Below are positions 222 to 47,268 of a stretch of DNA of 47,953 nucleotides, piece by piece. Position 1 is the stretch's first letter. Each line of letters begins with the position of its first letter. The notes under the pieces were generated by a model that was given only the letters and a program-made list of their open reading frames with translations, made no database searches and was not told the origin of the DNA. Position numbers and translations under genes: made by a program. The DNA lies in assembly GCA_028700595.1 (NCBI GenBank), contig JAQVSJ010000001.1:17345-65297 (forward strand). Reading direction: 5' to 3'. Origin of the DNA: Bacilli bacterium (GTDB taxonomy: Bacteria; Bacillota_I; Bacilli_A; RF39; UBA660).

Positions 222-716
222 TTATCTTTTTCTTGAATTTAATAATTGCAATCTCTCTTCCTTCGTTGGTTTTGCAATATCAATCATATATTTTTGATAT
301 ACAATATGTAATGCTTTATTAATCTTATAACTTTCTTTAAGACTGAAATTTTCAGTAGACATTTCTAAACATTCTTTAAATTCCTTTTTTAATTCTTCAT
401 ACGTCTTATGTCTACGATTATCAATATCATCTATATAATCATTAACGTCTTTCTTTAATTTGGATTTTATTATATCAAGACAACATTTAAATTGCATATC
501 TTTTTCCATCTTAATAATCTTATTTAAAGATGTATTAGACATATTCATCTTTTTTAATTCATTAATTATATTATCTCTTTCTTTAATTAATGTTTGTAAA
601 CTAGAATTAGCCTTACCATTATTTGTTGTTTCTCTAATATCATCACATACAATTATATATCGTTGTTTTAATTGTTCTATTTTAATCATATTCTGCTTAA
701 TTACTTCATTATTCAT
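222..716 (-). CDS. Hypothetical protein, 164 aa, Lys/Glu/Asn-rich, probably helical or coiled-coil
   Basis: Intact ORF directly downstream of glyQS on the same strand. I recognise no motif. Confidence 0.5.
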   Translation of the reverse strand: MNNEVIKQNMIKIEQLKQRYIIVCDDIRETTNNGKANSSLQTLIKERDNIINELKKMNMSNTSLNKIIKMEKDMQFKCCLDIIKSKLKKDVNDYIDDIDNRRHKTYEELKKEFKECLEMSTENFSLKESYKINKALHIVYQKYMIDIAKPTKEERLQLLNSRKR

Positions 717-2089: not shown

Positions 2090-2833
2090 TCATCTCCATT
2101 TTTCAATATTATCTAAAAACTTTTTAGTTGCAAAATACAAACCAGTATGTTTATCATAATAATCATTTATAACGTTATCTATCTCTCTTATAGTATCTTC
2201 ATTTATACTTAATTTACTTATCTTAGATATATCAATATAATTATACATTCTTAAATACTTAATAGTATCTAATTTAACAATAATTTCATTTGTTCTACAA
2301 TCTTTACATAACAAGCCATTACTATCAGCTGAAATTGTTACTATATCTTGTTTTTTTCCACATTTAGAACATTTATCCAATATTGGGAAAACTCCTAAAT
2401 ACATTAAATATTTCATTTCTAATATATTTTTTATTACTATACAATTATACCCTTCATTAATTTTTAATATTGAAAATATAAATGAATCATATATATTGTT
2501 AATATTATCTTCTGATACTTGTTTTAATACTTGATAAGTTAATTCCATTATATAAGAAACATATCCAATTTTAAAAATATCTTTTCTTATTTCTAATAAA
2601 TTATTAATTACATCTACTGATGTTAGAACAGATAATTTATCTTTTTTATAATATATTTCAAAAATACCATATACAAATTTGTTTGAAACATTACATAAAG
2701 CATTCTTAGGTTTCTTACATCCTTTAGATATTATGGATATAACTCCATATTGCTTAGTTAATACATCAATTATTTTACTTGAATCTCCATAATCTCTATC
2801 TCTTAAAACAATCCCTTCAACTTTTTCAAGCAT
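2090..2833 (-). CDS. recO: DNA repair protein RecO
   Basis: 247 aa with an N-terminal OB region (EGIVLRDRDYGDSSKI) and a Cys4 zinc motif (CSKCG...CKDC). era-recO synteny. Confidence 0.85.
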   Translation of the reverse strand: MLEKVEGIVLRDRDYGDSSKIIDVLTKQYGVISIISKGCKKPKNALCNVSNKFVYGIFEIYYKKDKLSVLTSVDVINNLLEIRKDIFKIGYVSYIMELTYQVLKQVSEDNINNIYDSFIFSILKINEGYNCIVIKNILEMKYLMYLGVFPILDKCSKCGKKQDIVTISADSNGLLCKDCRTNEIIVKLDTIKYLRMYNYIDISKISKLSINEDTIREIDNVINDYYDKHTGLYFATKKFLDNIEKWR

Positions 2834-2845
2834 AATAACACATCC

Positions 2846-3718
2846 CTAAAATCCTAGCTTAGAAAGATGCTTTTCCTTATCTCTCCATTTTGGAATACAC
2901 TTAACATATAATTTTAAAAATACTTTTTTTTGTAAAAGTTTTTCTATATCAATTCTTGCTTTAGTTCCAATTTCTTTAATTTTATCACCATTTTTACCAA
3001 TAATAATCTTTTTTATTCCTTCTCTTTCAACAATAATAAGAACATCTATTTCAATTAATTGCTTATTTTCTTTAATATTTTCAACCATACAAGTTGTTGA
3101 ATGAGGGATTTCATCATCCGTTAAATTTAATATTTTTTCTCTAACATATTCAGATATAAGAAATTCTTTAGTAACATCTGAAATACAATCATTTTCATAA
3201 TATTTTATCGGATCAACTATATATTTCTTAATAACACTTATTAGCACATCAACATTTTCGCCTTTTAATGCGGATATAGGTACTATTTCATTAAAATTGC
3301 CTAAATCTTTATATGCATCAATTATTTTCAAAATCATTTCTTTTTTTATAGTATCAATCTTGTTTAAAACCAATATTACAGGTTTATTCATCTTATTAAG
3401 TCTTTCAATAATAAATTTGTCTCCAGGCCCTATTCCATCACATACATCTACTAAAAATAGAATAACATCAACTTCATTCATACAACTGTATGCTCTATCA
3501 TTTAATACTTTACCTAATCTGTGTTTAGGCTTGTGTATTCCAGGTGTATCAATAAACACTATTTGATGTTCATTATCATTATATATACCTTGTATATTAT
3601 TTCTAGTAGTTTGTGGTTTATTAGATATAATTGCCAATTTACTTTTCATTATATTATTTAATAATGTAGATTTACCAACATTAGGTCTTCCAACAATACT
3701 TACAAATCCTGATTTCAT
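2846..3718 (-). CDS. era: GTPase Era
   Basis: G1 GRPNVGKST, G3 DTPG, G4 NKID, and a C-terminal KH domain. Confidence 0.95.
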   Translation of the reverse strand: MKSGFVSIVGRPNVGKSTLLNNIMKSKLAIISNKPQTTRNNIQGIYNDNEHQIVFIDTPGIHKPKHRLGKVLNDRAYSCMNEVDVILFLVDVCDGIGPGDKFIIERLNKMNKPVILVLNKIDTIKKEMILKIIDAYKDLGNFNEIVPISALKGENVDVLISVIKKYIVDPIKYYENDCISDVTKEFLISEYVREKILNLTDDEIPHSTTCMVENIKENKQLIEIDVLIIVEREGIKKIIIGKNGDKIKEIGTKARIDIEKLLQKKVFLKLYVKCIPKWRDKEKHLSKLGF

Positions 3719-4101
3719 AATAAATCTTCCTTATCAAAAGAATGACTTAACAAATCTTTTAATATGATTCTTTCTTCAAACTTATTTTTTGAATATAAAT
3801 ATATTGGCAAATCTTTACTAACAAAATCATTTAATGCTTGTCTACATATATAACAAGGAAAAGAATACTTATCACTATCAACCATAATATGTAATTCTTT
3901 AAAATCTTCCTTTTTAAGTCCATTACTCATAGCATTAAACAAAGCATTTCTTTCAGCACATATACCTGCTTGTGGAGAACTAGTTTCAATATTAACACCA
4001 TTAAACAATCTACCATCATTACTTACAAGAATAGCAGATACTTTAAAGTTGTAATAATCACTTCTCGAATTTTTTAACAATTTTAATAATTCATTATACA
4101 T
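3715..4101 (-). CDS. cdd: Cytidine deaminase
   Basis: CAERNA and PCxxCRQ zinc-ligand motifs, 128 aa, 4-nt overlap with era. Confidence 0.85.
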   Translation of the reverse strand: MYNELLKLLKNSRSDYYNFKVSAILVSNDGRLFNGVNIETSSPQAGICAERNALFNAMSNGLKKEDFKELHIMVDSDKYSFPCYICRQALNDFVSKDLPIYLYSKNKFEERIILKDLLSHSFDKEDLL

Positions 4102-4109
4102 AAATCACC

Positions 4110-4532
4110 TCACATAAATAATGATAATATCTTTGGTACAAAAACATATAACCAAACACATCCTGCAACTATTGATATAAAAAATACTGCAGCAGATGCA
4201 CAATCTTTAGCAACTTTTGCTAATGGATGAAATTCCTCAGTTACTAAATCTACAGTTGCCTCAATAGCTGTATTTAACAATTCTGCAACAACAATAATAG
4301 CAGCAGCAAACAAAACTAATACCCATTGTATACCAGATATCTTAAAATACATTCCAGCACATACTACTACTATAGATAATATAACATGTATTAGCAAACT
4401 TTGTTCATTAGTATAGGCATATTTTAATCCTGCTAATGAATTAGTAATACTATTTATAAATCTCCTAAAACCAAATTGTTTCTTTATAATTTCTCTATGT
4501 GTCTTTTTTCTACCTTGTTTTTTTGATCCCAT
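4110..4532 (-). CDS. dgkA: Diacylglycerol/undecaprenol kinase family protein
   Basis: Small three-TM protein with ...ELLNTAIEATVD... Position between ybeY and cdd matches Bacillus. Confidence 0.8.
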   Translation of the reverse strand: MGSKKQGRKKTHREIIKKQFGFRRFINSITNSLAGLKYAYTNEQSLLIHVILSIVVVCAGMYFKISGIQWVLVLFAAAIIVVAELLNTAIEATVDLVTEEFHPLAKVAKDCASAAVFFISIVAGCVWLYVFVPKILSLFM

Positions 4533-4962
4533 AATTCTCTAATATCTCCTTCTGTTTTTTGAACATTATTTTTTCATCTTCTTCATTAATATGATCATAT
4601 CCTAATAAATGAAGGAAACCATGAATCATTAAGAAACATAATTCTCTTAATAATGAATGATCATAATCATTAGCCTGCTCCTTAGCTTTATCTAATGAAA
4701 TATAAATATCACCTAACACTCTTATTTTATCATATATTACAGGTTTATAATCCTCAAATGCAAAAGAAATTACATCAGTCTCCTTATCAATTTTTCTATA
4801 ATCTCTATTTAACTCCTTAATTTTAGTATTATCAACTAATATTATATCAAATTCAACATTATCTAACTTTTCATATTTTAAAGCATATTTAATAAGCTTT
4901 TTCATTTCTGATATTTCTCTTACATCATACTTAGTCTCATTAAATATTTCTATAGTATTCAT
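4510..4962 (-). CDS. ybeY: rRNA maturation endoribonuclease YbeY
   Basis: HGFLHLLGYDH metal-binding motif, 150 aa. Confidence 0.9.
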   Translation of the reverse strand: MNTIEIFNETKYDVREISEMKKLIKYALKYEKLDNVEFDIILVDNTKIKELNRDYRKIDKETDVISFAFEDYKPVIYDKIRVLGDIYISLDKAKEQANDYDHSLLRELCFLMIHGFLHLLGYDHINEEDEKIMFKKQKEILENYGIKKTR

Positions 4963-31152: not shown

Positions 31153-31180
31153 TAAAAAAAAGATATTCTCTCGAATATCT
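31153..31180 (-). terminator. Rho-independent terminator after the lipoprotein gene
   Basis: Minus strand reads AGAUAUUCGAGAGAAUAUCU followed by U8. Confidence 0.75.
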
Positions 31181-31943
31181 AATTAGCATCTTCAACACAA
31201 TACTTAAATATTGCATTTTCCATTACAAAACTATACACTTTTTCAGAACTTTCAATTGTGTAATCATCTTTAAATTTGAATTTAAATACAGATGTTATAG
31301 TTTCAACAAATCTTTCTTGTTTTTCAGAATCAATAAATGTTACAACATTACCCTTAGATTTTAAAACATCCTTATCACATATATCAATATAATCACCATC
31401 TCTAGATACATATGATTCACCATCCATAGATGTAAACATTACATATAAATAATCATCTTCAACATAATAATCATTTTTACCGAATTTATCTACAAATAAA
31501 GATAACAATTCAGCTCCACCAATTGTATAATGTAATCCAAAAGATCTAGGATTTAAATTTTGAACTAAATCACCATCTTTATTAAATGCTAATAAAGTTC
31601 TACATCCTTCTCCTTCACAATTATTTTTATTATAATATGAATCAACAATTATTGTGTTTTTATAAATTGATATTTTTTTAACTTTATAAACATCAGAAAT
31701 CTCTTTTTCAGCAATAAATAATGCTTGCTTATCTTCAACTTTCTTTAATTCAACATCAATATTTTTATCATCCATCTTTAAATTTTTGATTTTAACTCTC
31801 TCATATTCTTTAGTAAAATCACAATCATCATTTAATTCACAAAAGTCAACTTCCCCTTTTTCCTTATAATCAATTGATAAAGTATTACTAGAACAACTTG
31901 TTAAAATTAATAATGAAACAACTAACAAACAAATCTTTTTCAT
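31179..31943 (-). CDS. Putative lipoprotein, 254 aa
   Basis: Signal peptide with a lipobox (LLILTSC). The mature part is acidic and has no recognisable domain. Confidence 0.65.
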   Translation of the reverse strand: MKKICLLVVSLLILTSCSSNTLSIDYKEKGEVDFCELNDDCDFTKEYERVKIKNLKMDDKNIDVELKKVEDKQALFIAEKEISDVYKVKKISIYKNTIIVDSYYNKNNCEGEGCRTLLAFNKDGDLVQNLNPRSFGLHYTIGGAELLSLFVDKFGKNDYYVEDDYLYVMFTSMDGESYVSRDGDYIDICDKDVLKSKGNVVTFIDSEKQERFVETITSVFKFKFKDDYTIESSEKVYSFVMENAIFKYCVEDAN

Positions 31944-31953
31944 ATTTCCTCCT

Positions 31954-33264
31954 TTATGGGTTTAACCTTGTAGGTCCCCTATATATTAATGTTGCCTCTC
32001 TTATATTATCTATACCAAATATCTGCATTAACAATCTTGCTGATCCTATTGCAAATCCACCATGTGGAGGACAACCATATTTAAAGAAATCTAAATAAAA
32101 CTGTAGTGATTTAATATTAATTCCTTTTTCTTTAGCTTGAGTTTCTAATATATCTATTCTATGTTCTCTTTGTGAACCAGTTGTAATTTCTAAACCTCTA
32201 TATAATAAATCAAAACTCTTTGTTAAACCATTTTCATCTAACATATGATAAAAAGGTCTAGCACTATATGGATACTTTGTTATAAATACAAAATCAGATT
32301 TATATTCATCTTTAGCATACTTACATATTAATTCCTCTTCTTTTCTTTCAAAATCTAATTTGTTTTCAGCTTCATAACCATACTTTTCTCTAATTATTTT
32401 TTTAGCATCGCTAAATGTTATTCTAGGAAACTTAACATCATAATTATCTATTTCAATATTAAATACTTTTTTAATATCTTCTCTATACTTATCATTTATT
32501 TTAGAAAAAGTATATTTTAATAATGCTTCTTCATGATCCATAACATCTTCTTCAGAATCAATCCATGCTAACTCAACATCAATCATATTTATTTCAGCTG
32601 CATGATAACTAGTGTGTGAATTTTCAGCTCTAAATGCAGGACCTATCTCAAATACTTTATCAAATCCACTTGCTAGTGCCATTTGTTTATAAAATTGTGG
32701 AGATTGAGATAAGCATGCTGGTGTACCAAAATAATCTAATTTAAATGTCTCAGCACCACTCTCAGCACTCGCTCCACTTATTTTTGGAGTATGTATTTCC
32801 ATAAAATTATTATTAACCCAATATTCTCTCATCGAATATTCCATCAATGTTTGAACTTTAAACAACAAATTATTATCTTCTCTTCTTAAATCTAAAAACC
32901 TATAATCTAATCTTGTTTCTCTTAATGCTGCATCTTTATTTTTAATATCTATAGGCAATTCAGGTAAAGATTTGCTAGTAACTTCAATATTTTTTGGTAT
33001 AATTTCCATACCATTTAATTTAACATTATCATTTTTAAATAATTTACCACTAACTTTAATAGTACTTTCTAATGATAATGTAGATACTAAATCATTTAAC
33101 ACTTTATTACTATCGTTTTTTTCAATAGTAACTTGTACTTTTCCACTACTATCTCTCACTATTATAAATTGAACATACTGTAAATCTCTAATATTATCTA
33201 TAAAACCAGAGAAAACTACATCTTTATCAATATAATCAATTAAATTATTTGCAAATATTTTCAT
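31954..33264 (-). CDS. aspS: Aspartate--tRNA ligase, short archaeal/type-2 form (class IIb)
   Basis: 436 aa with an N-terminal OB fold, motif 2 FRAE and motif 3 GGFAIG..RL. The C-terminal ...RLNP ending is typical of type-2 AspRS rather than AsnRS. hisS-aspS synteny. Confidence 0.7.
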   Translation of the reverse strand: MKIFANNLIDYIDKDVVFSGFIDNIRDLQYVQFIIVRDSSGKVQVTIEKNDSNKVLNDLVSTLSLESTIKVSGKLFKNDNVKLNGMEIIPKNIEVTSKSLPELPIDIKNKDAALRETRLDYRFLDLRREDNNLLFKVQTLMEYSMREYWVNNNFMEIHTPKISGASAESGAETFKLDYFGTPACLSQSPQFYKQMALASGFDKVFEIGPAFRAENSHTSYHAAEINMIDVELAWIDSEEDVMDHEEALLKYTFSKINDKYREDIKKVFNIEIDNYDVKFPRITFSDAKKIIREKYGYEAENKLDFERKEEELICKYAKDEYKSDFVFITKYPYSARPFYHMLDENGLTKSFDLLYRGLEITTGSQREHRIDILETQAKEKGINIKSLQFYLDFFKYGCPPHGGFAIGSARLLMQIFGIDNIREATLIYRGPTRLNP

Positions 33265-33271
33265 ATTACTC

Positions 33272-34531
33272 CTATCTTAAATTTAGATAATCCGATATAT
33301 CAAATATATCCATTTCTACTTCTTCTTTAGTATCATTATCTTTTATCTTAACCTTACCACTCTTTAATTCATCATCACCAATAATTACAAAATACTTAGG
33401 ATTTAACCTATCTATTGATTTAAATTGATTAGTTAATTTTCTATTTTGATAATCAGTTTCAATTTTATATCCTTGCATTCTCAAACTATCAATAATAGAA
33501 TAAACTTCTTCAGGTTCTTCACTTAAATTAGCAACATATAAATCAATTCTATCATTTTTAAATAAATTTATTTCCTCGCAATTAATAGCTAATATTAATC
33601 TTTCTAATCCCATTCCAAATCCCATTCCAGGTGTTTCAGGACCATCTAAAGATTCAACTAAATTATTATATCTTCCTCCACCACATATAGTATTTTGAGA
33701 TCCAAAGCCATCTATATCAGCTTGTATTTCAAATACAGTATGACAATAATAGTCTAATCCTCTTACTAAATTATTATCAACTTCATAATCAATTTCTAAA
33801 GCATCTAAATATTCTTTGACTTTATTAAACCTAATAACACTATCTTCATTTAAATATTCTGACACCTTTGGGCACTTAATCATTAATTCATGATTCATAT
33901 CAACCTTACAATCAAGTATTCTAAGAGGATTCTTGTTTAATCTTTTTTGACAGTCTTCACATAATTCATTAATTCTAGGTTTAAAATAATCAACTAATTT
34001 TTTATTATATAACTTTCTAGATTCAGAATCACCTAATGAATTAATTTTAACTATAACATTCTTTAATCCAATTACTTTTAAAATATTAACTGCCAAACTA
34101 ATTATTTCAGCATCAATTAATGGATTATCATTTCCTAGTACTTCTACACCAAATTGTGTATGTTCTCTTAATCTTCCAGATTGAGGTCTTTCGTATCTAA
34201 ATGCAGATGAAAAATAATATAGTTTTACTGGTTGTTCCGAATTAGCATACATCTTATTTTCAATAAAACTTCTAATAACTCCAGCAGTTCCTTCTGGTTT
34301 TAAAGTTATTTCTCTATCAGATCTATCTTTAAAATCATATGTTTCCTTAGTAACTATATCTGTAGTTTCTCCAACACTTCTATGAAACAACTCAGTATGT
34401 TCATATGTAGGAGTTTTAATAAAATTATAATTATATTTATCACATATATCACTTATTAAGTTTTGCAAATAAATAAATTGTTTTCCTTCTAACCCAAATA
34501 TATCTTTAGTTCCTTTAGGTTTTTGTATCAT
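33272..34531 (-). CDS. hisS: Histidine--tRNA ligase
   Basis: KGTKD, ...FRYERPQSGRLREH..., and GGGRYN motifs. Confidence 0.95.
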   Translation of the reverse strand: MIQKPKGTKDIFGLEGKQFIYLQNLISDICDKYNYNFIKTPTYEHTELFHRSVGETTDIVTKETYDFKDRSDREITLKPEGTAGVIRSFIENKMYANSEQPVKLYYFSSAFRYERPQSGRLREHTQFGVEVLGNDNPLIDAEIISLAVNILKVIGLKNVIVKINSLGDSESRKLYNKKLVDYFKPRINELCEDCQKRLNKNPLRILDCKVDMNHELMIKCPKVSEYLNEDSVIRFNKVKEYLDALEIDYEVDNNLVRGLDYYCHTVFEIQADIDGFGSQNTICGGGRYNNLVESLDGPETPGMGFGMGLERLILAINCEEINLFKNDRIDLYVANLSEEPEEVYSIIDSLRMQGYKIETDYQNRKLTNQFKSIDRLNPKYFVIIGDDELKSGKVKIKDNDTKEEVEMDIFDISDYLNLR

Positions 34532-34599
34532 AATATCCTCCTAAAAAACAAGCACTCTATACTTTACATAATAATTATAACATGCTTTTATTATTTTTT

Positions 34600-36750
34600 T
34601 TATTTAATTATTCTTTCAACATCAATAACATTTTGAATTTTATTAACATTAATTATAAATTTATCTAGTTTTTCTGTATTTTCAACCAATACTATTAAAT
34701 CAAATATATTTTCCTCTCCATTATTAATAGTATTAATATTTTGTATTCCAATATTTGATGTAGAAGCTTTACTAATTAATTCCATTAGAAAATTATCTTT
34801 ATTACTAACTCTAATAACCAAATTAGTTTGATACTTATTATTAGTATTATCATTCCATTTAACATCTATTAATCTCTCATCTATATTAGATATATTATGA
34901 CAATTACTTCTATGTATAGTAATTCCTTTACCTTTAGTTATATATCCAATAATTTCATCACCTTTAATAGGTTTACAACAACTGGCTAAATTAACTTTAA
35001 TTGCATCAATATTACTAACAATAATATCATTTTTAATCTTAATATCATTATAATTATTAGATATTACTTTTTCTAACAATTTATCTTCCTTATTTATCTC
35101 TTCTTTATATATTAAATTAATAATATAAGTTGGAGAATACTTATTGTTACTAATAGATAAATATATTTCATCCATATTTTCTTCAGCCAATTCTTTTAAT
35201 ATTATCTTAATATTATCTTCATTATAAAACTCATTAAATGCTATCTTACTTTTTCTTAATTCCTTTTCTAATAACTCTTGTCCTTTTTTAATATTATCTT
35301 TCTTATCTATTTTAGTATAAAAAGATTTTATTCTATCTCTAGCTTGACTAGTTTTAACAATATTAACCCATTCTTTACTTGGTCCTTTAGAGCTTTTATT
35401 AATATTTACTTTAATAACATCTCCATCTCTTAATTCATAATCAAGAGATACAATATTGTCATTAACAATAGCACCAACCATCTTATCACCAATCTCAGTA
35501 TGTACTCTATATGCAAAATCTATTGGTGTTGATCCCTTTGGTAACTGTATTACATCCCCTTTTGGAGTATATACATATATATCGTTATCATTTAATTCAG
35601 ATTTGATTGTTTCAATCAAATCCTCACCACTAATTTTTTCATCTTTTTCTAATATAGTTCTAAAAAATTGTAACTTTTGTTCACAAAAACTTTTAGTAGC
35701 TTCACTAACATCAACTTTTTCCTTATAAGCCCAGTGAGAAGCAACACCATATTCAGCAATTTGATCCATATCAAAAGTTCTTATTTGAACTTCAAACAGT
35801 TGACCATCTATTCCAAATATAGTTGTATGTAAAGATTGATACATATTCTCTTTAGGCATAGCTATATAATCTTTAAATCTTTTAGATAAAGGTTTAAACT
35901 TAGAGTGTATTAAACCAAGAGATAAATAACACTCTGATTCAGTATCTACATATACCCTTAATGCTAAAATATCGTATATTTCATTAAATCTTTTACCGTT
36001 TTCCATCTTCTTATATATACTGTAAATAGACTTACTACGTCCCTTAATTTGATGCTTAATACCATTATCATTAAGAATATCAGATATTTTATTTTTCATT
36101 TCAATAACTGAATTATCTCTTTCCAATTTACTATTATTTAAATTCTTTACAATATCATAATATACATCTGGTTTTAAATATCTTAAACATAAATCTTCTA
36201 ATTCACTCTTTATATAATGAATACCTAAATGATTGGCTAAAGGTACAAGTATCTCTAAAGTTTCTTTAGCTTTTTCCTTTTGTTTATTTTCAGGTAAAGA
36301 ATATAAAATTCTCATATTATGAAGTCTATCTGCTAACTTTAATATTATAATTCTAGCATCTTCACATATACCTATTAATATCTTTTTATAATAATTAATT
36401 AAATATTCAGAACTAGTAGATAAAGGTATTTTAGAAATCTTTCTAGAGTCTACAACAATACTTAACACTTCTTCACCAAATATATTCTTAACTTCATCAT
36501 CTATATCAGTAGCATGAAGTAAAGCTGCACAAAGAGTTACATAATCAGCTTTAATTTTAGTTAATATATTTGCTACATTCAAAGGATGTAATATATAGTC
36601 TTCCCCATCAGTATTCTTCTGACCTTCATGATATTTATACGCAAAAACATATGCTTTCTTAAGCATATTAATTTTATCTTCATCATCTATATATTTACCA
36701 GCATTTTTTAACAAATCATCAATAGTAATTATTTCCTGTTGCTCATTCAT
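34600..36750 (-). CDS. rel: RelA/SpoT-family (p)ppGpp synthetase; the hydrolase motif looks degenerate
   Basis: Synthetase motifs are intact (GRSKSIYSIYKKM, DILALRV, RFKDYIA, YQSLHT, EVQIRT). TGS and ACT-like C-terminal domains are present. The hydrolase region has HP...LLHATDIDD in place of LLHDVVEDT. Confidence 0.9.
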   Translation of the reverse strand: MNEQQEIITIDDLLKNAGKYIDDEDKINMLKKAYVFAYKYHEGQKNTDGEDYILHPLNVANILTKIKADYVTLCAALLHATDIDDEVKNIFGEEVLSIVVDSRKISKIPLSTSSEYLINYYKKILIGICEDARIIILKLADRLHNMRILYSLPENKQKEKAKETLEILVPLANHLGIHYIKSELEDLCLRYLKPDVYYDIVKNLNNSKLERDNSVIEMKNKISDILNDNGIKHQIKGRSKSIYSIYKKMENGKRFNEIYDILALRVYVDTESECYLSLGLIHSKFKPLSKRFKDYIAMPKENMYQSLHTTIFGIDGQLFEVQIRTFDMDQIAEYGVASHWAYKEKVDVSEATKSFCEQKLQFFRTILEKDEKISGEDLIETIKSELNDNDIYVYTPKGDVIQLPKGSTPIDFAYRVHTEIGDKMVGAIVNDNIVSLDYELRDGDVIKVNINKSSKGPSKEWVNIVKTSQARDRIKSFYTKIDKKDNIKKGQELLEKELRKSKIAFNEFYNEDNIKIILKELAEENMDEIYLSISNNKYSPTYIINLIYKEEINKEDKLLEKVISNNYNDIKIKNDIIVSNIDAIKVNLASCCKPIKGDEIIGYITKGKGITIHRSNCHNISNIDERLIDVKWNDNTNNKYQTNLVIRVSNKDNFLMELISKASTSNIGIQNINTINNGEENIFDLIVLVENTEKLDKFIINVNKIQNVIDVERIIK

Positions 36751-36760
36751 TATATCACTC

Positions 36761-37036
36761 CTAATTATTGTCTAAATTAACTTTTCTATCAATCAAAGAT
36801 ATTTGTTTTTTAATATAATTATCTAACAAGTCCAAATCACAACATAAAATATCATTAACCATTTCTGATAATGTTAAATTACTTGTAGACTTCCATTTAG
36901 ATTCCTTTAAACAATTCCATATATCTTCTTCTTTTATATATGTTTTACCCAACTTATATATATCTCTTTTTCTATTTGATAACGCAGGATAAACTTTTTT
37001 ATATAAATCTAATAAAGAATGAAATTCATTTTCCAT
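36761..37036 (-). CDS. ComN-like post-transcriptional regulator family protein
   Basis: ~91 aa with ...ITEEDIW.CL...KW......LSEMV.DIL-like pattern. Position upstream of rel matches Bacillus yrzD. Start at the ATG at 37036 after GGGTGA. Confidence 0.45.
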   Translation of the reverse strand: MENEFHSLLDLYKKVYPALSNRKRDIYKLGKTYIKEEDIWNCLKESKWKSTSNLTLSEMVNDILCCDLDLLDNYIKKQISLIDRKVNLDNN

Positions 37037-37071
37037 AATATCACCCAATATAATTATATATTAAAATCAAA

Positions 37072-37101
37072 GAAATAAAAAGAGATGATTTATTCATCCC
37101 T
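37072..37101 (-). terminator. Rho-independent terminator after the 37102-37470 ORF
   Basis: Minus strand reads AGGGAUGAAUAAAUCAUCUCU followed by UUUUAUUU. Confidence 0.6.
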
Positions 37102-37470
37102 TTATACAGCTCTTTTAAATATTGATTTTACTTTCATCTTAGGTTTCCCAACATATTCAACAATTAAAGTTGTACCATCATTGTTTTTTATAGTAGTAGC
37201 TTTATAAACACTTTCAGAATACTTGTTAATATTTCCTAAAAACAATCTTAATTCTTTAAAAGCACTTGAAAGTCTTTTCATATTATTTACTTCTGACAAA
37301 CAAGATACTATAGATTCATTTATAAATCTATAATCTTTTTTTAATTCATAAGCTGCTAAATTATAGTAATGATAATCTTCCTTAACTTTTCTAACCATAA
37401 TTTCATAATTTTTTCTATCCTGTTCGCTAATAAATTCAATTATCTTGCTATTCAGGTCACTCTTATTCAT
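37102..37470 (-). CDS. Hypothetical protein, 122 aa
   Basis: Intact ORF with its own terminator. No motif recognised. Confidence 0.45.
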   Translation of the reverse strand: MNKSDLNSKIIEFISEQDRKNYEIMVRKVKEDYHYYNLAAYELKKDYRFINESIVSCLSEVNNMKRLSSAFKELRLFLGNINKYSESVYKATTIKNNDGTTLIVEYVGKPKMKVKSIFKRAV

Positions 37471-37488
37471 AATAATCCTCTCGAATTT

Positions 37489-37986
37489 TTATATTCTTTT
37501 TAATAGTGCTTTCTCAAATTCATCTATAGTAACTTCAGTACGCAAATCACAATTAGCATAAAAATTACTTATAAATGTAGCAATTTGTTCCCTAGTATAA
37601 ACATTTATTTCTGGTAATTGTAATTTTTCTACTTCTTCTTTATCAGCAATAAATACATAATAACCAGCAACACCACCACGAAGTAAATCTTTTTGTCTAT
37701 TTATAATAGCATACTTTGAACCATTATCAAATATATAATGTGCATTAACATTGTCTCCTAATATTCCTTCACAAATATTACTTGTTCTTTTGTCATCTGC
37801 ATATAAAAATAAATCTTCATCATTATTCATTTGTCCATCTTTAAACATTGCAAAACTTAAATTTAAATCTTTATCTGCATAAATTGATAAATAATGATCT
37901 TTACCATTCCCTTTTGATACTTGTAATTCTACACCTAATTTTTCATTATCTTCTTTCCCATTTAGACTAAAAGCTTTCATTTCCAT
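37489..37986 (-). CDS. Hypothetical protein, ~165 aa
   Basis: Start moved to the ATG at 37986 after AAGAGGAG. TGTGTAAAAT, an extended -10-like element, lies upstream. No motif recognised. Confidence 0.45.
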   Translation of the reverse strand: MEMKAFSLNGKEDNEKLGVELQVSKGNGKDHYLSIYADKDLNLSFAMFKDGQMNNDEDLFLYADDKRTSNICEGILGDNVNAHYIFDNGSKYAIINRQKDLLRGGVAGYYVFIADKEEVEKLQLPEINVYTREQIATFISNFYANCDLRTEVTIDEFEKALLKRI

Positions 37987-38048
37987 AATATTCTCCTCTT
38001 TCCTTCTTTTGAAAACATATATTTTACACAAAAATAAAAAAAAGTCAA

Positions 38049-42747: not shown

Positions 42748-43254
42748 CTATTTTAACTTTTTATTTAACAACAAATCAAAATATCTTTTTTTTCTACATT
42801 TATATATATCACTATTTTGAATAACCATATCATCAAGTCTATCTTTTTCAAAATATGCAAGAACATTTGAATATTGCTTATTAATAACCATCAATAAAGT
42901 TGTATCATATATTTGATCATTTACTTCTAGCCATACATGACCTCCATTTGGAGATCCAGCTGTACCTTTTAATATTGGCAAAATTCCATTTACAATAGAA
43001 CAATTTTCAAACCCATAACTAAGAGTTTGCACAAAAAATCTACATCTCCCAATATTATATCCTTCCTCGAACGCTTTATTTACATCACCATTTACAACAA
43101 CATTACTTAGAGAACCAAAAATATTTATTTCTTCTTCTCCAAAATCTCTTATAAAATTATTATTTATTCCATATTTAATTTTATTATAAAATTCTGGGTT
43201 ACTTTCTAACAAATAATTTCTAAACTCTAGTGCCTTTTTCATTGTTGCTTTCAA
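42748..43254 (-). CDS. Hypothetical protein, possibly with a transglutaminase-like Cys-His-Asp core
   Basis: GRC71RFF ... GGH106VWLEVNDQIYD117TT resembles the C...H.W.E....D.T core of transglutaminase-like cysteine proteases. It overlaps the valS 3' end by 23-35 nt, depending on the start (43254 or 43242). Confidence 0.4.
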   Translation of the reverse strand: MKATMKKALEFRNYLLESNPEFYNKIKYGINNNFIRDFGEEEINIFGSLSNVVVNGDVNKAFEEGYNIGRCRFFVQTLSYGFENCSIVNGILPILKGTAGSPNGGHVWLEVNDQIYDTTLLMVINKQYSNVLAYFEKDRLDDMVIQNSDIYKCRKKRYFDLLLNKKLK

Positions 43255-45646
43255 TAACTATATTTTTAATCATATATTCTGAATCCTCCATAATGTTTTT
43301 ATTTATATTATTTATGTTTAATGTTGCTTTTAAGTCATCAATTGCTTCTTCAAAAGCAATATTTAATTCATTTGATAAACTAATATCAATACTCTCTACC
43401 AAAGTTTTTAACGATACATTTTTATTGGTTTTCTCTCCTCTAATATCACTAACAATATTAATTAATTGATCTCCATTTTCAATATTATTTTCAAAATTAA
43501 AATCTAATTTTTTAATCTCAGTTAAATGGATAGATTTATTATTTTTATATATTTCTTGAAATATTTCTTCAGTAATAAATGGAAAGAAAGGAGAAAAATT
43601 TTGTAGCAATTTATATAAAATCATATATATAGTCTTTTGACCAGAATATCTAGCATTATTTTTAAATTCTTCTGGTCTATATAATCTATGTTTTACTATT
43701 TCAATATAATTATCGCAGAAATTCCAAAAGAACTTTTCTAATATATTCAATCCTAGACCAACTTCATAATCATCCATATACTTAATATATTGTTTTTCCA
43801 TTTCATTATATTTGTTTATTATATACTTATCAAAATATTCATAATTATCAAAACTCTTATCTTCATAATCAACTAAATGCATTTCAATAAATCTACAAAC
43901 ATTATATAACTTATTAACTAACTTCTTACCTCTATCTAAAGTATCCATTGAGAATAAAATATCTGTTCCCAATCTTCCACTTCCTGCCCAATATCTAACT
44001 ACATCAGCAGAATAAGTATCAATTAAATCAATTGGTTCAAACTTATTATTTCCTTTACTTTTACTAATCTTTTCACCTTTATCAGCCATTACAAATCCTG
44101 ATATCATAACATTTTCCCAAGGTTTATTGCAGAAATGATAATAACTTTTAACAATTGTATAAAAATCCCATGTTCTAATTATTTCAGATGCATTACTTCT
44201 TAAACTCATAGGATTAAGAATATTTTCATAATTACTCTCTTCTTTATACTTCATATTAATTAAAGGAGTTAATGATGAAGTAGCCCAAGTATCCATAACG
44301 TCTTTTTCAGGTATAAAGTCATCACTTCCACATTCACATTTACTATTAGGTTTATCTATTAATGGATTAACTGGTAACTGTGATTCATCTGCAAATATTG
44401 GTTTACCACATTTAGAACAATACCATACTGGAAAAGGTACACCAAAATATCTTTGTCTCGATATACACCAATCCCACGCAACATTGTTTACCCATTCATT
44501 ATATCTAGAATGCATATATTCAGGATGCCATTTAATAGAATTCCCAATTTCAATAAACTTTTCCTTATTATCAATAATATTAATAAACCATTGATTAATT
44601 ATAGAATATTCTATTTCCTTACCACATCTCTCATGAACTTGTACTTCATGCTCAATTTCTTCAATCTTTTCAAGATAGCCATTATTATCTAGATCACTAA
44701 TTATAGCTTCTCTAGCTTCTTTAATCTTCATACCTTTATACTTATCAACTGAATCATTAATACACCCATCATTAGTAAATATATTCTTTAAAGGTAATTT
44801 ATATTTATTCCACCATTCAATATCAGTTTGATCTCCAAAAGTACAACACATTACAATACCAGTACCCTTGTCAATACTAACCTTTTCATCACCAATAATA
44901 GGTACTTCAATATTTAATGTTGGCACAATTGCTTTCTTACCAATAAGATGATTATTTTTCTTATCACTCGGATTAATAAATACAGCTACTATTGCAGGTA
45001 ACAATTCAGGTCTAGTTGTTGCAATAGTAAATACTTCATTATCAGATGATTTAAAATTAATATAATTAAAATTAGCATTAATAGTCTTAGTTTCTAACTC
45101 TGCTTGTGCAATAGATGTTAAACATTCATTACACCATAATGCAGGAGCTTTCTTATAATATGCTTTATTTTTATTTACTAAATCAAGAAATGACAATTGA
45201 CTTATTTTAATAGATGATGGACTAACAGTTTTATACAACAAATTCCAATCAGTACTTACTCCCAATTTACTAAATAAGTTTCTAAATTCTTCTTCATATT
45301 TATCAGTAATTGAATAGCACAATTTAGAAAATTCTTCTCTGCCAATTTCACTAGCTTTCTTACCACATTCTTTTTCTACTAATCTTTCACTAGGTAATCC
45401 ATTATCATCAAATCCGAAAGGATAAAAAACATTATAACCTCTTAATCTTTTATATCTAGCAATCATTTCAGTTTGAGAATAAGAAAATATATGACCAATA
45501 TGAATCTTACCACTTACAGTTGGTGGTGGTGTATCAATAGAAAAAACTTCCCTTTTATCTTGTTTAAAATCATATACTTTATTATTATTCCAATAATTTA
45601 ACCATTTGTTTTCTTTATCTTTAAAATCATATCTATTATCAAGCAT
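43220..45646 (-). CDS. valS: Valine--tRNA ligase, archaeal-type
   Basis: IDTPPPTVSGKIHIGH (HIGH), YPFGFDDNGLPSERLVEKE (archaeal-type rather than bacterial PGTDHAGIATQ), KISKS (KMSKS). A T-box with a GUA specifier candidate lies upstream. Confidence 0.8.
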   Translation of the reverse strand: MLDNRYDFKDKENKWLNYWNNNKVYDFKQDKREVFSIDTPPPTVSGKIHIGHIFSYSQTEMIARYKRLRGYNVFYPFGFDDNGLPSERLVEKECGKKASEIGREEFSKLCYSITDKYEEEFRNLFSKLGVSTDWNLLYKTVSPSSIKISQLSFLDLVNKNKAYYKKAPALWCNECLTSIAQAELETKTINANFNYINFKSSDNEVFTIATTRPELLPAIVAVFINPSDKKNNHLIGKKAIVPTLNIEVPIIGDEKVSIDKGTGIVMCCTFGDQTDIEWWNKYKLPLKNIFTNDGCINDSVDKYKGMKIKEAREAIISDLDNNGYLEKIEEIEHEVQVHERCGKEIEYSIINQWFINIIDNKEKFIEIGNSIKWHPEYMHSRYNEWVNNVAWDWCISRQRYFGVPFPVWYCSKCGKPIFADESQLPVNPLIDKPNSKCECGSDDFIPEKDVMDTWATSSLTPLINMKYKEESNYENILNPMSLRSNASEIIRTWDFYTIVKSYYHFCNKPWENVMISGFVMADKGEKISKSKGNNKFEPIDLIDTYSADVVRYWAGSGRLGTDILFSMDTLDRGKKLVNKLYNVCRFIEMHLVDYEDKSFDNYEYFDKYIINKYNEMEKQYIKYMDDYEVGLGLNILEKFFWNFCDNYIEIVKHRLYRPEEFKNNARYSGQKTIYMILYKLLQNFSPFFPFITEEIFQEIYKNNKSIHLTEIKKLDFNFENNIENGDQLINIVSDIRGEKTNKNVSLKTLVESIDISLSNELNIAFEEAIDDLKATLNINNINKNIMEDSEYMIKNIVIESNNEKGTRV

Positions 45647-45650
45647 ATAT

Positions 45651-46400
45651 TCACCTACTTTCTAAATATTCATTCATAAACTTTTTAATTTCTTTATACT
45701 TTTCAATAGTTTCTTCATTTTTAACAATTCCAATGTACCTATCAATTAATATATTAAAATAATCTTTCTCTTTAATAATATCATAACTATATTTAAAATT
45801 TAAATCAAAAAACATAGATACTTGCAATATTTTCATATCAGCACTAGTTTTAATATCATTAAAATTTAATGCTTTCTTTTCAAAAAAACTTTTATATACA
45901 TTTTCAGTTACATTATCTGTTTTAAAAACTATTGCTTTACTATCTTCTACATAATGCTTAAATATATCTAACTTATCTGCATCTCTTATTATCTTACAAA
46001 ATAATAATTCTTTCTCATCACATTCTCCAATTTCATGTTTATTATGATATAGAATACTTTTTTTAATTATTTCATCATAACTATTATCAACAATATAACT
46101 CCTTATATATTGATCCTTAAATAATATATCTATAGCATAATCACCATGATCAATACTCTTAGAATCATTAAAAGTATTGTATACCTTATATTGTTCAAAT
46201 CTACCAATATCATGTAATAAACCTATTAATCCAGCTATTAATACTTCTTCAATACTCAATCCAATATTCTTAGCCAAACTAATACAATTTTGCATTACTC
46301 TCTTAGAATGATAATATTTATAATTAATATTACTATCATTTAAATCATACTTATTCACAAAATTATTAAACTCTTTTTCTGCTTTATCAAAATTAACCAT
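45651..46400 (-). CDS. HD-domain phosphohydrolase family protein (249 aa)
   Basis: H...LLHDIGRF...DHG...H...RDADKLD metal-binding pattern. Start moved to the ATG at 46400 after AGGAGG; the longer ORF-track N-terminus is the T-box terminator read as protein. Confidence 0.7.
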   Translation of the reverse strand: MVNFDKAEKEFNNFVNKYDLNDSNINYKYYHSKRVMQNCISLAKNIGLSIEEVLIAGLIGLLHDIGRFEQYKVYNTFNDSKSIDHGDYAIDILFKDQYIRSYIVDNSYDEIIKKSILYHNKHEIGECDEKELLFCKIIRDADKLDIFKHYVEDSKAIVFKTDNVTENVYKSFFEKKALNFNDIKTSADMKILQVSMFFDLNFKYSYDIIKEKDYFNILIDRYIGIVKNEETIEKYKEIKKFMNEYLESR

Positions 46401-46416
46401 ATTACCTCCTATTAAA

Positions 46417-46613
46417 CAAAAAAAGCACCCTAAACTAAGGACGCTTATACGTGGTACCACCTTACATAGCAAAGCTATGATCTCAATTCGTAACGAGAAT
46501 AACGTTATATCCTAAGATATAATACTCACAAGCTACATTCATATATTTAATTATTAGTTTTCACCAACCACTAACTCTCTACAAAAATAAATATATTACT
46601 CCTCTTGATCAAC
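46417..46613 (-). promoter_or_regulatory. T-box riboswitch leader (probable Val specifier GUA) with terminator/antiterminator
   Basis: The minus strand shows, in order: GAUCAAGAGGAGUA (GA/K-turn region), AGAGA bulge, GGUUGGUGAAAAC distal loop, specifier loop GAAUGUAGC (GUA at 46536..46534), T-box sequence AAGGUGGUACCACG (46466..46449), then hairpin GCGUCC-UUAGUUUA-GGGUGC plus U7. Confidence 0.8.
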
Positions 46614-46617
46614 GTAT

Positions 46618-47268
46618 TTAATTTTTAATTTCAATTCCACCAAATACTACTGTATATGTAATAGTAATTTCATTTTTACTATCTTCTTTTTCAACCAAAT
46701 TCTTATTATCAAATGCACCAAATAAAGGTAAACCTTCACTTGTTACTTTATGTTTCTTAGGTAATATTAAATCTACTCCACCAAATAATACAAATACATT
46801 AATATGTCCTTTATTATCTTTTAACTTAATATCACTTAAATCAACAGTACATCCTCCAAATAAAGCAGTTACATCACAAGATTCAAATTCTTTATTAACA
46901 ACCTTTTCTTCAAGACCACCAAATAATGCACAATAACTCTTACCACCATTTGAATCTTTTTTAATAGTCTTTATATTTAATATTCTAACACCTATTAGTA
47001 CTATAATAACAGGAAACAATAAAAGACCTACAATACTCTTATCAAATATTTCTAACGCTAAAATTAATGAAGAAAGACCCAATAAGAACAATATTAAATA
47101 AAATATATCAACCTTTCTTCTTTCTACCATGCCTACAACTCCAATAATCAATACCAATGATGGAAGCAAGTATTCAGAAATTTCATTAAAATCAATTATT
47201 TCAGCATTCGATAAAAACAACAATATACCTAATATTATTACAAATAAACCCAATGTTTTCTTAATCAT
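46618..47268 (-). CDS. LiaF-like (DUF2154) membrane protein, cell-wall stress response family
   Basis: Four N-terminal TM segments, then a C-terminal domain with repeated LFGG/VFGG beta-strand motifs. RBS GGGAGG. Confidence 0.5.
   Translation of the reverse strand: MIKKTLGLFVIILGILLFLSNAEIIDFNEISEYLLPSLVLIIGVVGMVERRKVDIFYLILFLLGLSSLILALEIFDKSIVGLLLFPVIIVLIGVRILNIKTIKKDSNGGKSYCALFGGLEEKVVNKEFESCDVTALFGGCTVDLSDIKLKDNKGHINVFVLFGGVDLILPKKHKVTSEGLPLFGAFDNKNLVEKEDSKNEITITYTVVFGGIEIKN

Follow-up and report, generated by a model that had tools for sequence, protein, structure and literature searches.

The long RelA/SpoT homologue (RSH) of Firmicutes and Tenericutes, Rel, is classed as a bifunctional enzyme, and the monofunctional long synthetase is RelA of Beta- and Gammaproteobacteria (PMC3153485, PMC6606846). 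RelA/SpoT and RshB arose through duplication (PMC3153485). The HDxxED motif is crucial for (p)ppGpp hydrolysis and is missing from the pseudo-HD domain of RelA, which still regulates synthesis (PMC8012599). In Rel of Streptococcus equisimilis (RelSeq), Arg44 takes part in substrate binding and pairs with Asp78, and Arg44, Lys45 and Ser46, which lie in the alpha2/alpha3 loop, touch the guanine and the phosphates of the substrate. The substitutions D78A and R44Q each suffice to abolish the hydrolase activity of RelSeq (PMC13299517). Here, a rel-type gene is described from a 47,953-nucleotide stretch of contig JAQVSJ010000001.1 of a Bacilli bacterium (assembly GCA_028700595.1), called the window below. 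The gene has the architecture and genomic position of an ordinary Rel of Bacillota and a hydrolase site that differs from it at the residues named above.

The product is identical to NCBI MDD4027496.1, recorded as 'MAG: RelA/SpoT family protein [Bacilli bacterium]' (MAG, metagenome-assembled genome), and the ENA assembly ERZ27250894 also carries the contig with this gene. The G+C content of the window is 24%. The gene, its domains and the elements of its hydrolase site are located as follows.

34600..36750, minus strand: rel-type long RSH gene, an open reading frame (ORF) of 716 aa (MDD4027496.1).
36220..36654, minus strand: putative pseudo-hydrolase HD_4 domain, aa 33-177 (Pfam PF13328, 113 bits).
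35716..36042, minus strand: (p)ppGpp synthetase domain RelA_SpoT, aa 237-345 (Pfam, 134 bits).
35407..35580, minus strand: TGS domain, aa 391-448 (Pfam PF02824, 84.7 bits).
34876..35364, minus strand: alpha-helical (AH) and RIS/zinc-finger region, aa 463-625 (Pfam PF19296).
34612..34842, minus strand: ACT/RRM domain, aa 637-713 (Pfam PF13291, 35.6 bits).
36613..36621, minus strand: QKN, aa 44-46, with Asn46 at the place of RelSeq Arg44 according to the alignments.
36586..36588, minus strand: His55, corresponding to RelSeq His53; this metal ligand is retained and is invariant in the alignment of relatives.
36496..36522, minus strand: degenerate HDxxED segment LLHATDIDD, aa 77-85, where the canonical sequence is LLHDVVEDT.
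36310..36333, minus strand: ADRLHNMR block, aa 140-147, with Asp141 (RelSeq Asp144) and Asn145 (RelSeq Asn148) kept.

The changes in the hydrolase site carry the main finding. The first-pass annotation of this DNA had read LLHATDIDD in place of LLHDVVEDT, with Ala for the Asp of the HD dyad, and the DNA reads exactly so: the reverse complement of 36496..36522 is TTA CTT CAT GCT ACT GAT ATA GAT GAT. Ala80, at the position of RelSeq Asp78, is encoded by the GCT codon at 36511..36513. The same annotation held that the segment is about five residues shorter and that the VVED block is lost. This was borne out by the spacing from the His to the following FG, which is 11 residues compared with 16 in RelSeq, and by the HMMER alignment to B. 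subtilis Rel (6yxa), in which 'LLHA----TDID-DEV' stands opposite 'FLHDVVEDTDVTLDDL' and the ED pair falls in the gap. In RelSeq numbering, the deleted pair is Glu81-Asp82. A further change, absent from the earlier annotation, was found upstream, where RelSeq Arg44-Lys45-Ser46 is replaced by Asn46-Thr47-Asp48. Over the whole site, RelSeq R44, K45, S46, Y50, H53, H77, D78, E81, D82, K141, D144, H147, N148 and T151 correspond to N, T, D, Y, H, H, A, gap, gap, K, D, H, N and I. The first His, within ILHP at about 36586..36597, and the ADRLHNMR block had both been reported to remain, and both are present, the latter outside the span of 36490-36620 to which the annotation was attached. Three of the four Mn2+ ligands are thus kept in the sequence (His55, His79 and Asp141), and the fourth, Asp78, is Ala. 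By these alignments, the protein combines the natural equivalents of two changes, each inactivating by itself, with the loss of the ED pair.

The other half of the catalytic region is canonical. The synthetase motifs had been described as intact, including RFKD, the RxKD variant (aa 291-294, 35869..35880), and every residue checked agrees with this. The set comprised 16 RelSeq residues (R241, K243, K251, D264, I266, R269, R295, K297, D298, K304, Y308, S310, H312, E323, Q325 and R327), all of which match save for a conservative Ile-to-Leu exchange at 266. These positions are invariant in 120/120 of the closest proteins and in 71/71 proteins from species representatives. The long-RSH architecture is complete as well, with HD_4, RelA_SpoT, TGS, AH/RIS and ACT all scoring above the Pfam gathering thresholds, and the Cys/His columns of the CC...H...C pattern in the RIS/zinc-finger region are conserved across the aligned relatives. 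The protein scores 654.9 bits on TIGR00691 (cut-off 499.2), which places it in the RelA/SpoT family. It falls below the cut-offs of the NCBIfam bifunctional SpoT-type equivalog (511 versus 947) and of the RelA equivalog NF008124 (423 versus 728 bits). The generic HD model PF01966 also stays below its cut-off on the HD domain (17 versus 22 bits). The best sequence match in the PDB is B. subtilis Rel (6yxa, E=1.5e-146).

Structure prediction is in line with a folded N-terminal half. The AlphaFold2 (AF2) model of this region has a mean predicted local distance difference test score (pLDDT) of 87.6 and adopts the fold of a Rel N-terminal domain. The helix expected to carry HDxxED stops at Leu78 in the model, and residues 79-83 form a loop. 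The top Foldseek matches in the PDB are N-terminal domains of Rel proteins, the best being T. thermophilus Rel with AMP/ppGpp (6s2u, TM score 0.80). The resemblance of the predicted model to one conformational state says nothing firm about the state of the enzyme.

Taken together with the genomic context and phylogeny described below, it is very likely that the gene is the positional orthologue of a bifunctional Rel which has turned into a synthetase-only, RelA-like stringent factor with a pseudo-hydrolase domain. The proposal that this long RSH can make (p)ppGpp and may not degrade it, as RelA, agrees with all the sequence-level tests. Such an enzyme would sense deacylated tRNA on stalled ribosomes through its TGS, AH, RIS and ACT domains and make (p)ppGpp, and it would be unable to hydrolyse the alarmone. 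Its HD domain would be kept as a folded pseudo-enzyme for its part in regulating the synthetase, against which it packs, as has been shown for E. coli RelA (PMC8012599). If Rel does not hydrolyse (p)ppGpp, alarmone removal would depend on something else, be it a small alarmone hydrolase (SAH), another RSH, a hydrolase from outside the RSH family, or dilution; the first-pass annotation had already pointed to the need for another hydrolase.

The degeneration is not restricted to one sequence. Whether relatives share the HA variant was checked, and two independent assemblies were found to have both HA and the deletion, namely those of P0002/L002 (78% identity) and P0003 (77%). Since independent assemblies have both, an assembly or sequencing artefact is excluded. 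In both proteins, the equivalent of RelSeq Asn148 is Thr. Two strain variants with 99.7% identity (P0121 and P0122) carry Ser for Ala at position 80, and in the clade as a whole it is occupied by D, E, A or S. In the set of 120 closest proteins, drawn from a collection of 5.8 billion sequences, only 8/120 have H-D-E-D at positions 77/78/81/82, and one of these eight (P0096) is chimeric. The other states include HDKM (39 proteins), HE-- with a 4-residue deletion (11), HDKT (10) and HA-- (3), beside many further HE-x-x variants.

P0096 would place a canonical HDED inside the degenerate clade and imply a reversal. It was rejected as an apparent chimera. Over the first ~140 aa its identity to P0011 is only 33-68%; over almost all of the rest it reaches 95-100%. 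P0096 lies on a Logan contig of 4439 bp, where an HDVLEDT N-terminus from a different organism is joined to a P0011-like rest of the HEKT type. The chimera is probably an assembly artefact, although it may reflect recombination.

A scan of GTDB species-representative genomes yielded 80 loci, from which 71 Rel proteins were extracted. The scan used peptide patterns derived from the window, so the 71 species are a biased and non-exhaustive sample. HDxxED was found in 0/71 of these Rel proteins, and most of them carry a conserved LLHE[TV][IV]N[HN]G. All 80 loci come from uncultured gut or rumen MAGs labelled 'Bacilli / Mollicutes / Tenericutes / Erysipelotrichaceae', among them Mycoplasma sp. CAG:956 (L067) and Coprobacillus sp. 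CAG:605 (L021). These lineages are presumably RF39-like in GTDB. In the RF39-like clade (loci L020-L079), the replacement motif, D78E with E81N and D82H or D82N, is strongly conserved, and Arg44 is retained. Such a conserved motif, as opposed to random decay, could point to a different and still constrained function of the pocket. At one species-representative locus, L080 (contig CAZKBC010000025.1, positions of about 2723..4875), rel occurs in two pieces, ORFs of 235 and 490 aa, either through a frameshift or sequencing error or as a genuine pseudogene.

Against the general background of long RSHs, in which 139/147 informative nearest 50%-identity cluster representatives have HDED, the loss of the hydrolase motif is rare. 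The degeneration thus appears to be a lineage trait that affects a whole clade, which goes beyond the single gene of the earlier annotation.

The history of the trait was followed in a neighbour-joining (NJ) tree built from synthetase and C-terminal columns only. As HD columns were left out, the tree is independent of the hydrolase trait. The degenerate relatives of the window protein form one clade (99/100 NJ bootstrap), within which the HA-- subclade receives 100/100. The HENH sequences of the RF39-like group make up a clade of their own (100/100), and the canonical P0104, P0114, P0118, P0119 and P0129 branch around the degenerate clades. A single loss shared by the window clade and the HENH clade has a bootstrap of 20/100, and the motif may have been lost once or twice. 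Within the window clade, the states can be arranged in a series from HDED through HDE[TN] and HE[DN]x to HEKx/HDKM and, lastly, HE-- and HA--. The series is consistent with relaxed constraint after a first hit on the ED pair.

This is supported by an excess in rate specific to the HD domain. Kimura distances of the HD domain to the outgroup are 0.96-1.08 in the degenerate groups versus 0.81-0.83 in their canonical sisters. The corresponding values are 0.90 versus 0.86-0.88 for the synthetase domain and 1.42-1.45 versus 1.39-1.40 for the C-terminal half. Relative to the canonical sisters, the acceleration is confined to the HD domain. Compared with L085, the window gene shows 19 synonymous and 2 non-synonymous codon differences, one of the latter being codon 80 (GCT/TCT). 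The gene as a whole is therefore strongly constrained and its former catalytic position drifts. The uncorrected ratios of non-synonymous to synonymous differences (pN/pS) to L002 are 0.28 for the HD domain, 0.10 for the synthetase domain and 0.25 for the C-terminal domains. The HD domain is still under purifying selection despite its faster evolution.

The genomic context bears on the identity of the gene. Its immediate neighbours are listed below.

36761..37048, minus strand: Post_transc_reg (PF13797) gene upstream of rel, ending 10 nt before the rel ATG.
36758..36762, minus strand: AGGAG Shine-Dalgarno sequence of rel, 7 nt upstream of the start.
33272..34531, minus strand: hisS, downstream of rel after a 68 bp gap.
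31954..33264, minus strand: aspS, non-discriminating, after hisS.

A terminator-like hairpin (37079..37103) lies ahead of the Post_transc_reg gene, and no T-box was found in the gap between rel and hisS (34532..34599). From the 10-nt gap, the position of the hairpin and the T-box-free 68-bp gap, it follows that rel is probably co-transcribed with its neighbours. The order in the window is Post_transc_reg-rel-hisS-aspS, and in the canonical relatives P0118 and P0119 it is Post_transc_reg-rel-dtd-...-hisS-aspS. Because the protein branches from among canonical Rel sequences in the NJ tree and shares this gene context, it is regarded as an orthologue of the Rel of Bacillota. By these sequence comparisons, the gene is the ancestral, syntenic rel and not an extra copy.

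Some features of the locus were recorded beside this. The dtd gene (D-aminoacyl-tRNA deacylase) sits directly downstream of the canonical rel in L082-L084 and is absent between rel and hisS in the window. At 436 aa, the aspartyl-tRNA synthetase (AspRS) of the window is short and of the archaeal type, a non-discriminating aspartate-tRNA(Asn) ligase (NF003483, 493 bits), which implies Asn-tRNA formation via transamidation. The canonical relative L084 has a 580-aa bacterial-type AspRS with a GAD domain. Pfam-negative ORFs of 120-250 aa are located at 37102..38031, 31179..31943, 42748..43254 and 222..716, all on the minus strand, and two of these ORFs sit just upstream of the Post_transc_reg-rel unit. 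No NCBIfam match was obtained for 37102..37470, 37489..38031 or 31179..31943. Elsewhere in the window, an unusually long protein of 807 aa with two T2SSF (GspF/PilC-type) stretches is encoded at 9996..12419 (minus strand), adjoined by a prepilin peptidase gene at 9223..9987 (minus strand). The two genes are a possible remnant of a competence or type IV pilus system in a reduced genome.

Two observations weigh against a synthetase-only Rel. With three of the four Mn2+ ligands and Asn145 kept, the site is far less degraded in sequence than that of E. coli RelA, and residual binding of metal or nucleotide, or even a weak hydrolase activity, may persist. A Rel without hydrolase and without a partner should also be toxic, and neither the 48 kb of the window nor the +-3 kb flanks of rel in 80 relatives yielded a partner.

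The retained residues give rise to the first alternative. The dead pocket may have been repurposed as an allosteric site for a metal or nucleotide, for example one where (p)ppGpp or pGpp binds, stays uncleaved and so tunes the synthetase. Retention of three metal ligands makes such a role a live, if minor, alternative. It would explain why His55, His79, Asp141 and Asn145 were kept while the rest of the site was lost, and it would suit both the LLHE[TV][IV]N[HN]G motif of the sister RF39-like clade, so unlike random decay, and the precedent of the RelA pseudo-HD domain, which regulates synthesis (PMC8012599). However, the Arg44/Lys45/Ser46 set that contacts guanine and phosphates in RelSeq is now Asn/Thr/Asp. 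Moreover, the motif drifts fast inside the clade of the window itself. On balance, a repurposed pocket is improbable.

Less probable still is a hydrolase that stays active in rewired form. His55, His79 and Asp141 would hold the metal, Asp82, Asp84, Asp85 or Glu86 would replace Asp78 and the ED pair, and the enzyme would remain bifunctional. The kept ligands and Asn145, the purifying selection on the HD domain (pN/pS 0.28) and the acidic residues that come after the His can all be read this way. In the HMMER alignment, Asp82 stands opposite the Asp that follows the B. subtilis ED pair by two residues; Asp84 and Glu86 seem to fall among the acidic residues of the next stretch. The role of Asp82, Asp84 and Asp85 as substitute ligands, which the first-pass annotation had considered, found no support. 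The candidate acids vary even within the three HA-type sequences, Asp82 being Asn in P0002 and Asp85 being Asn in P0003. Position 80 alternates between Ala and Ser in near-identical strains and takes four states across the clade, and the N148 equivalent is Thr in P0002 and P0003. D78A or R44Q alone kills the RelSeq hydrolase, and here both positions are changed and ED is lost too.

A last possibility, that the gene is decaying towards a pseudogene in a reduced genome where (p)ppGpp signalling has been given up, is barely credible and largely refuted by the selection data: the AT-rich genome of reduced type (24% GC) and the loss of dtd from the rel locus would fit, whereas the intact 716-codon ORF with its strong AGGAG ribosome-binding site, the 19 synonymous against 2 non-synonymous strain differences, the synthetase-domain pN/pS of 0.10 and the invariance of the synthetase residues in > 190 relatives do not.

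The synthetase-only reading is retained, and a companion to the enzyme was looked for. Among the six-frame ORFs of the 48-kb window, searches for a second RSH, small alarmone synthetase (SAS) or SAH, made with phmmer using the HD and synthetase domains of the protein itself and with hmmsearch, returned only rel. For hmmsearch, the hidden Markov models (HMMs) were derived from a set of some 150 long RSHs of diverse origin. With the same HMMs, only Rel itself was found among the ORFs within +-3 kb of rel at the 80 species-representative loci. No Nudix, Ppx/GppA or HD_4 protein was detected by Pfam among the other window genes, whose annotations are of housekeeping functions, with about ten ORFs at 18.6-24.8 kb unscanned.

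A stand-alone HD protein (45651..46400) was considered as an alarmone hydrolase and rejected, as it belongs to a generic and very widespread PF01966 family of ~250 aa. The family has 7364 hits, Clostridia included, and the protein has no sequence match in the PDB. The AF2 model (pLDDT 96) matches generic HD hydrolases weakly and does not match Mesh1, SAH or Rel. The gene stands in an operon headed by a T-box leader (46434..46621, minus strand; RF00230, 112.5 bits), with the HD gene first (45651..46400, minus strand) and the gene of an 808-aa tRNA synthetase 4 nt after it (43220..45646, minus strand). Pfam had hinted at LeuRS (leucyl-tRNA synthetase) for the latter, and NCBIfam identifies it as ValRS (valyl-tRNA synthetase; NF009687, 991 bits). 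The specifier loop of the T-box, GAA-U-GUA-G, fits a GUA (Val) specifier.

A more far-reaching proposal can be attached to these negative results. The window clade and the RF39-like MAGs, Mycoplasma sp. CAG:956 included, are abundant, uncultured Bacilli of gut and rumen with reduced genomes. This whole lineage might run its stringent response on one long RSH, a synthetase-only enzyme encoded at the ancestral rel locus, and lack hydrolases of the RSH family altogether, with (p)ppGpp cleared by an unrecognised non-RSH enzyme, or only by dilution or further conversion. We consider this unlikely. If true, such an RSH-hydrolase-free lineage would violate the rule by which every (p)ppGpp synthetase is accompanied by an RSH hydrolase. 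A small alarmone hydrolase in these genomes would make the case a tidy and unsurprising subfunctionalisation; its absence would mean an unknown clearing route. Which route degrades (p)ppGpp in this lineage is the question that the locus raises.

This widespread gut and rumen lineage offers a natural experiment in which a bifunctional Rel would have become a RelA-like enzyme while keeping its pseudo-hydrolase domain. Some close relatives are annotated automatically as 'bifunctional (p)ppGpp synthetase/hydrolase', and the loss of the site contradicts such labels. The RelA pseudo-hydrolase and the divergent HD domain of RshB were known before; what differs here is the apparently independent origin in the single syntenic rel of a Bacillota-derived gut lineage, the clade-wide extent and the visible intermediates. 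No earlier description of a degenerate or pseudo-hydrolase Rel in the RF39/Tenericutes lineage was found in the searchable literature.

Among the known systems, the Rel of Bacillota (B. subtilis 6yxa, RelSeq 1vj7) shares with the window protein the same six-domain architecture, the RFKD motif and the genomic position. It differs in Asp78, which is Ala here, in the ED pair, which is deleted, and in Arg44/Lys45/Ser46, which are replaced, and the window protein scores below the bifunctional equivalog. Between helices 6 and 7, it aligns with B. subtilis Rel without a gap and has no extended loop. RelA has an extended H-loop between alpha6 and alpha7 (PMC8012599), and that of E. coli RelA contains 7 extra residues relative to the window protein.

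E. coli RelA (5iqr) follows the same logic as the window protein, with an intact synthetase and C-terminal domains and an HD domain that is degenerate but kept. The two nevertheless differ in several respects. RelA of Beta- and Gammaproteobacteria has ExDD where the window protein has RFKD, and the RelA-type cluster representative P0249 shows E-D-D at the RxKD positions. In the HMMER alignment, E. coli RelA has lost all metal ligands, whereas the window sequence keeps three of four. The NJ tree places the origin of the window protein within the Rel of Bacilli, independent of the RelA clade. RelA is paired with SpoT, whereas the window gene stands at the ancestral locus and neither a duplication nor a SpoT partner was seen in the window or in the +-3 kb loci.

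RshB of Bacteroidetes resembles the window protein in being nested in Rel, with an HD domain diverged 'similar to that for RelA' and a conserved SYNTH domain (PMC3153485). RshB is, however, a duplicate beside a normal Rel, whereas the gene described here is itself the syntenic rel and comes from another phylum. SpoT[Hs] of Moraxellaceae (A. baumannii 7qpr) is also a monofunctional long RSH that arose via the loss of one site. It is the mirror image of the window protein, in that it has lost the synthetase and retained the hydrolase, and it has RelA as its partner.

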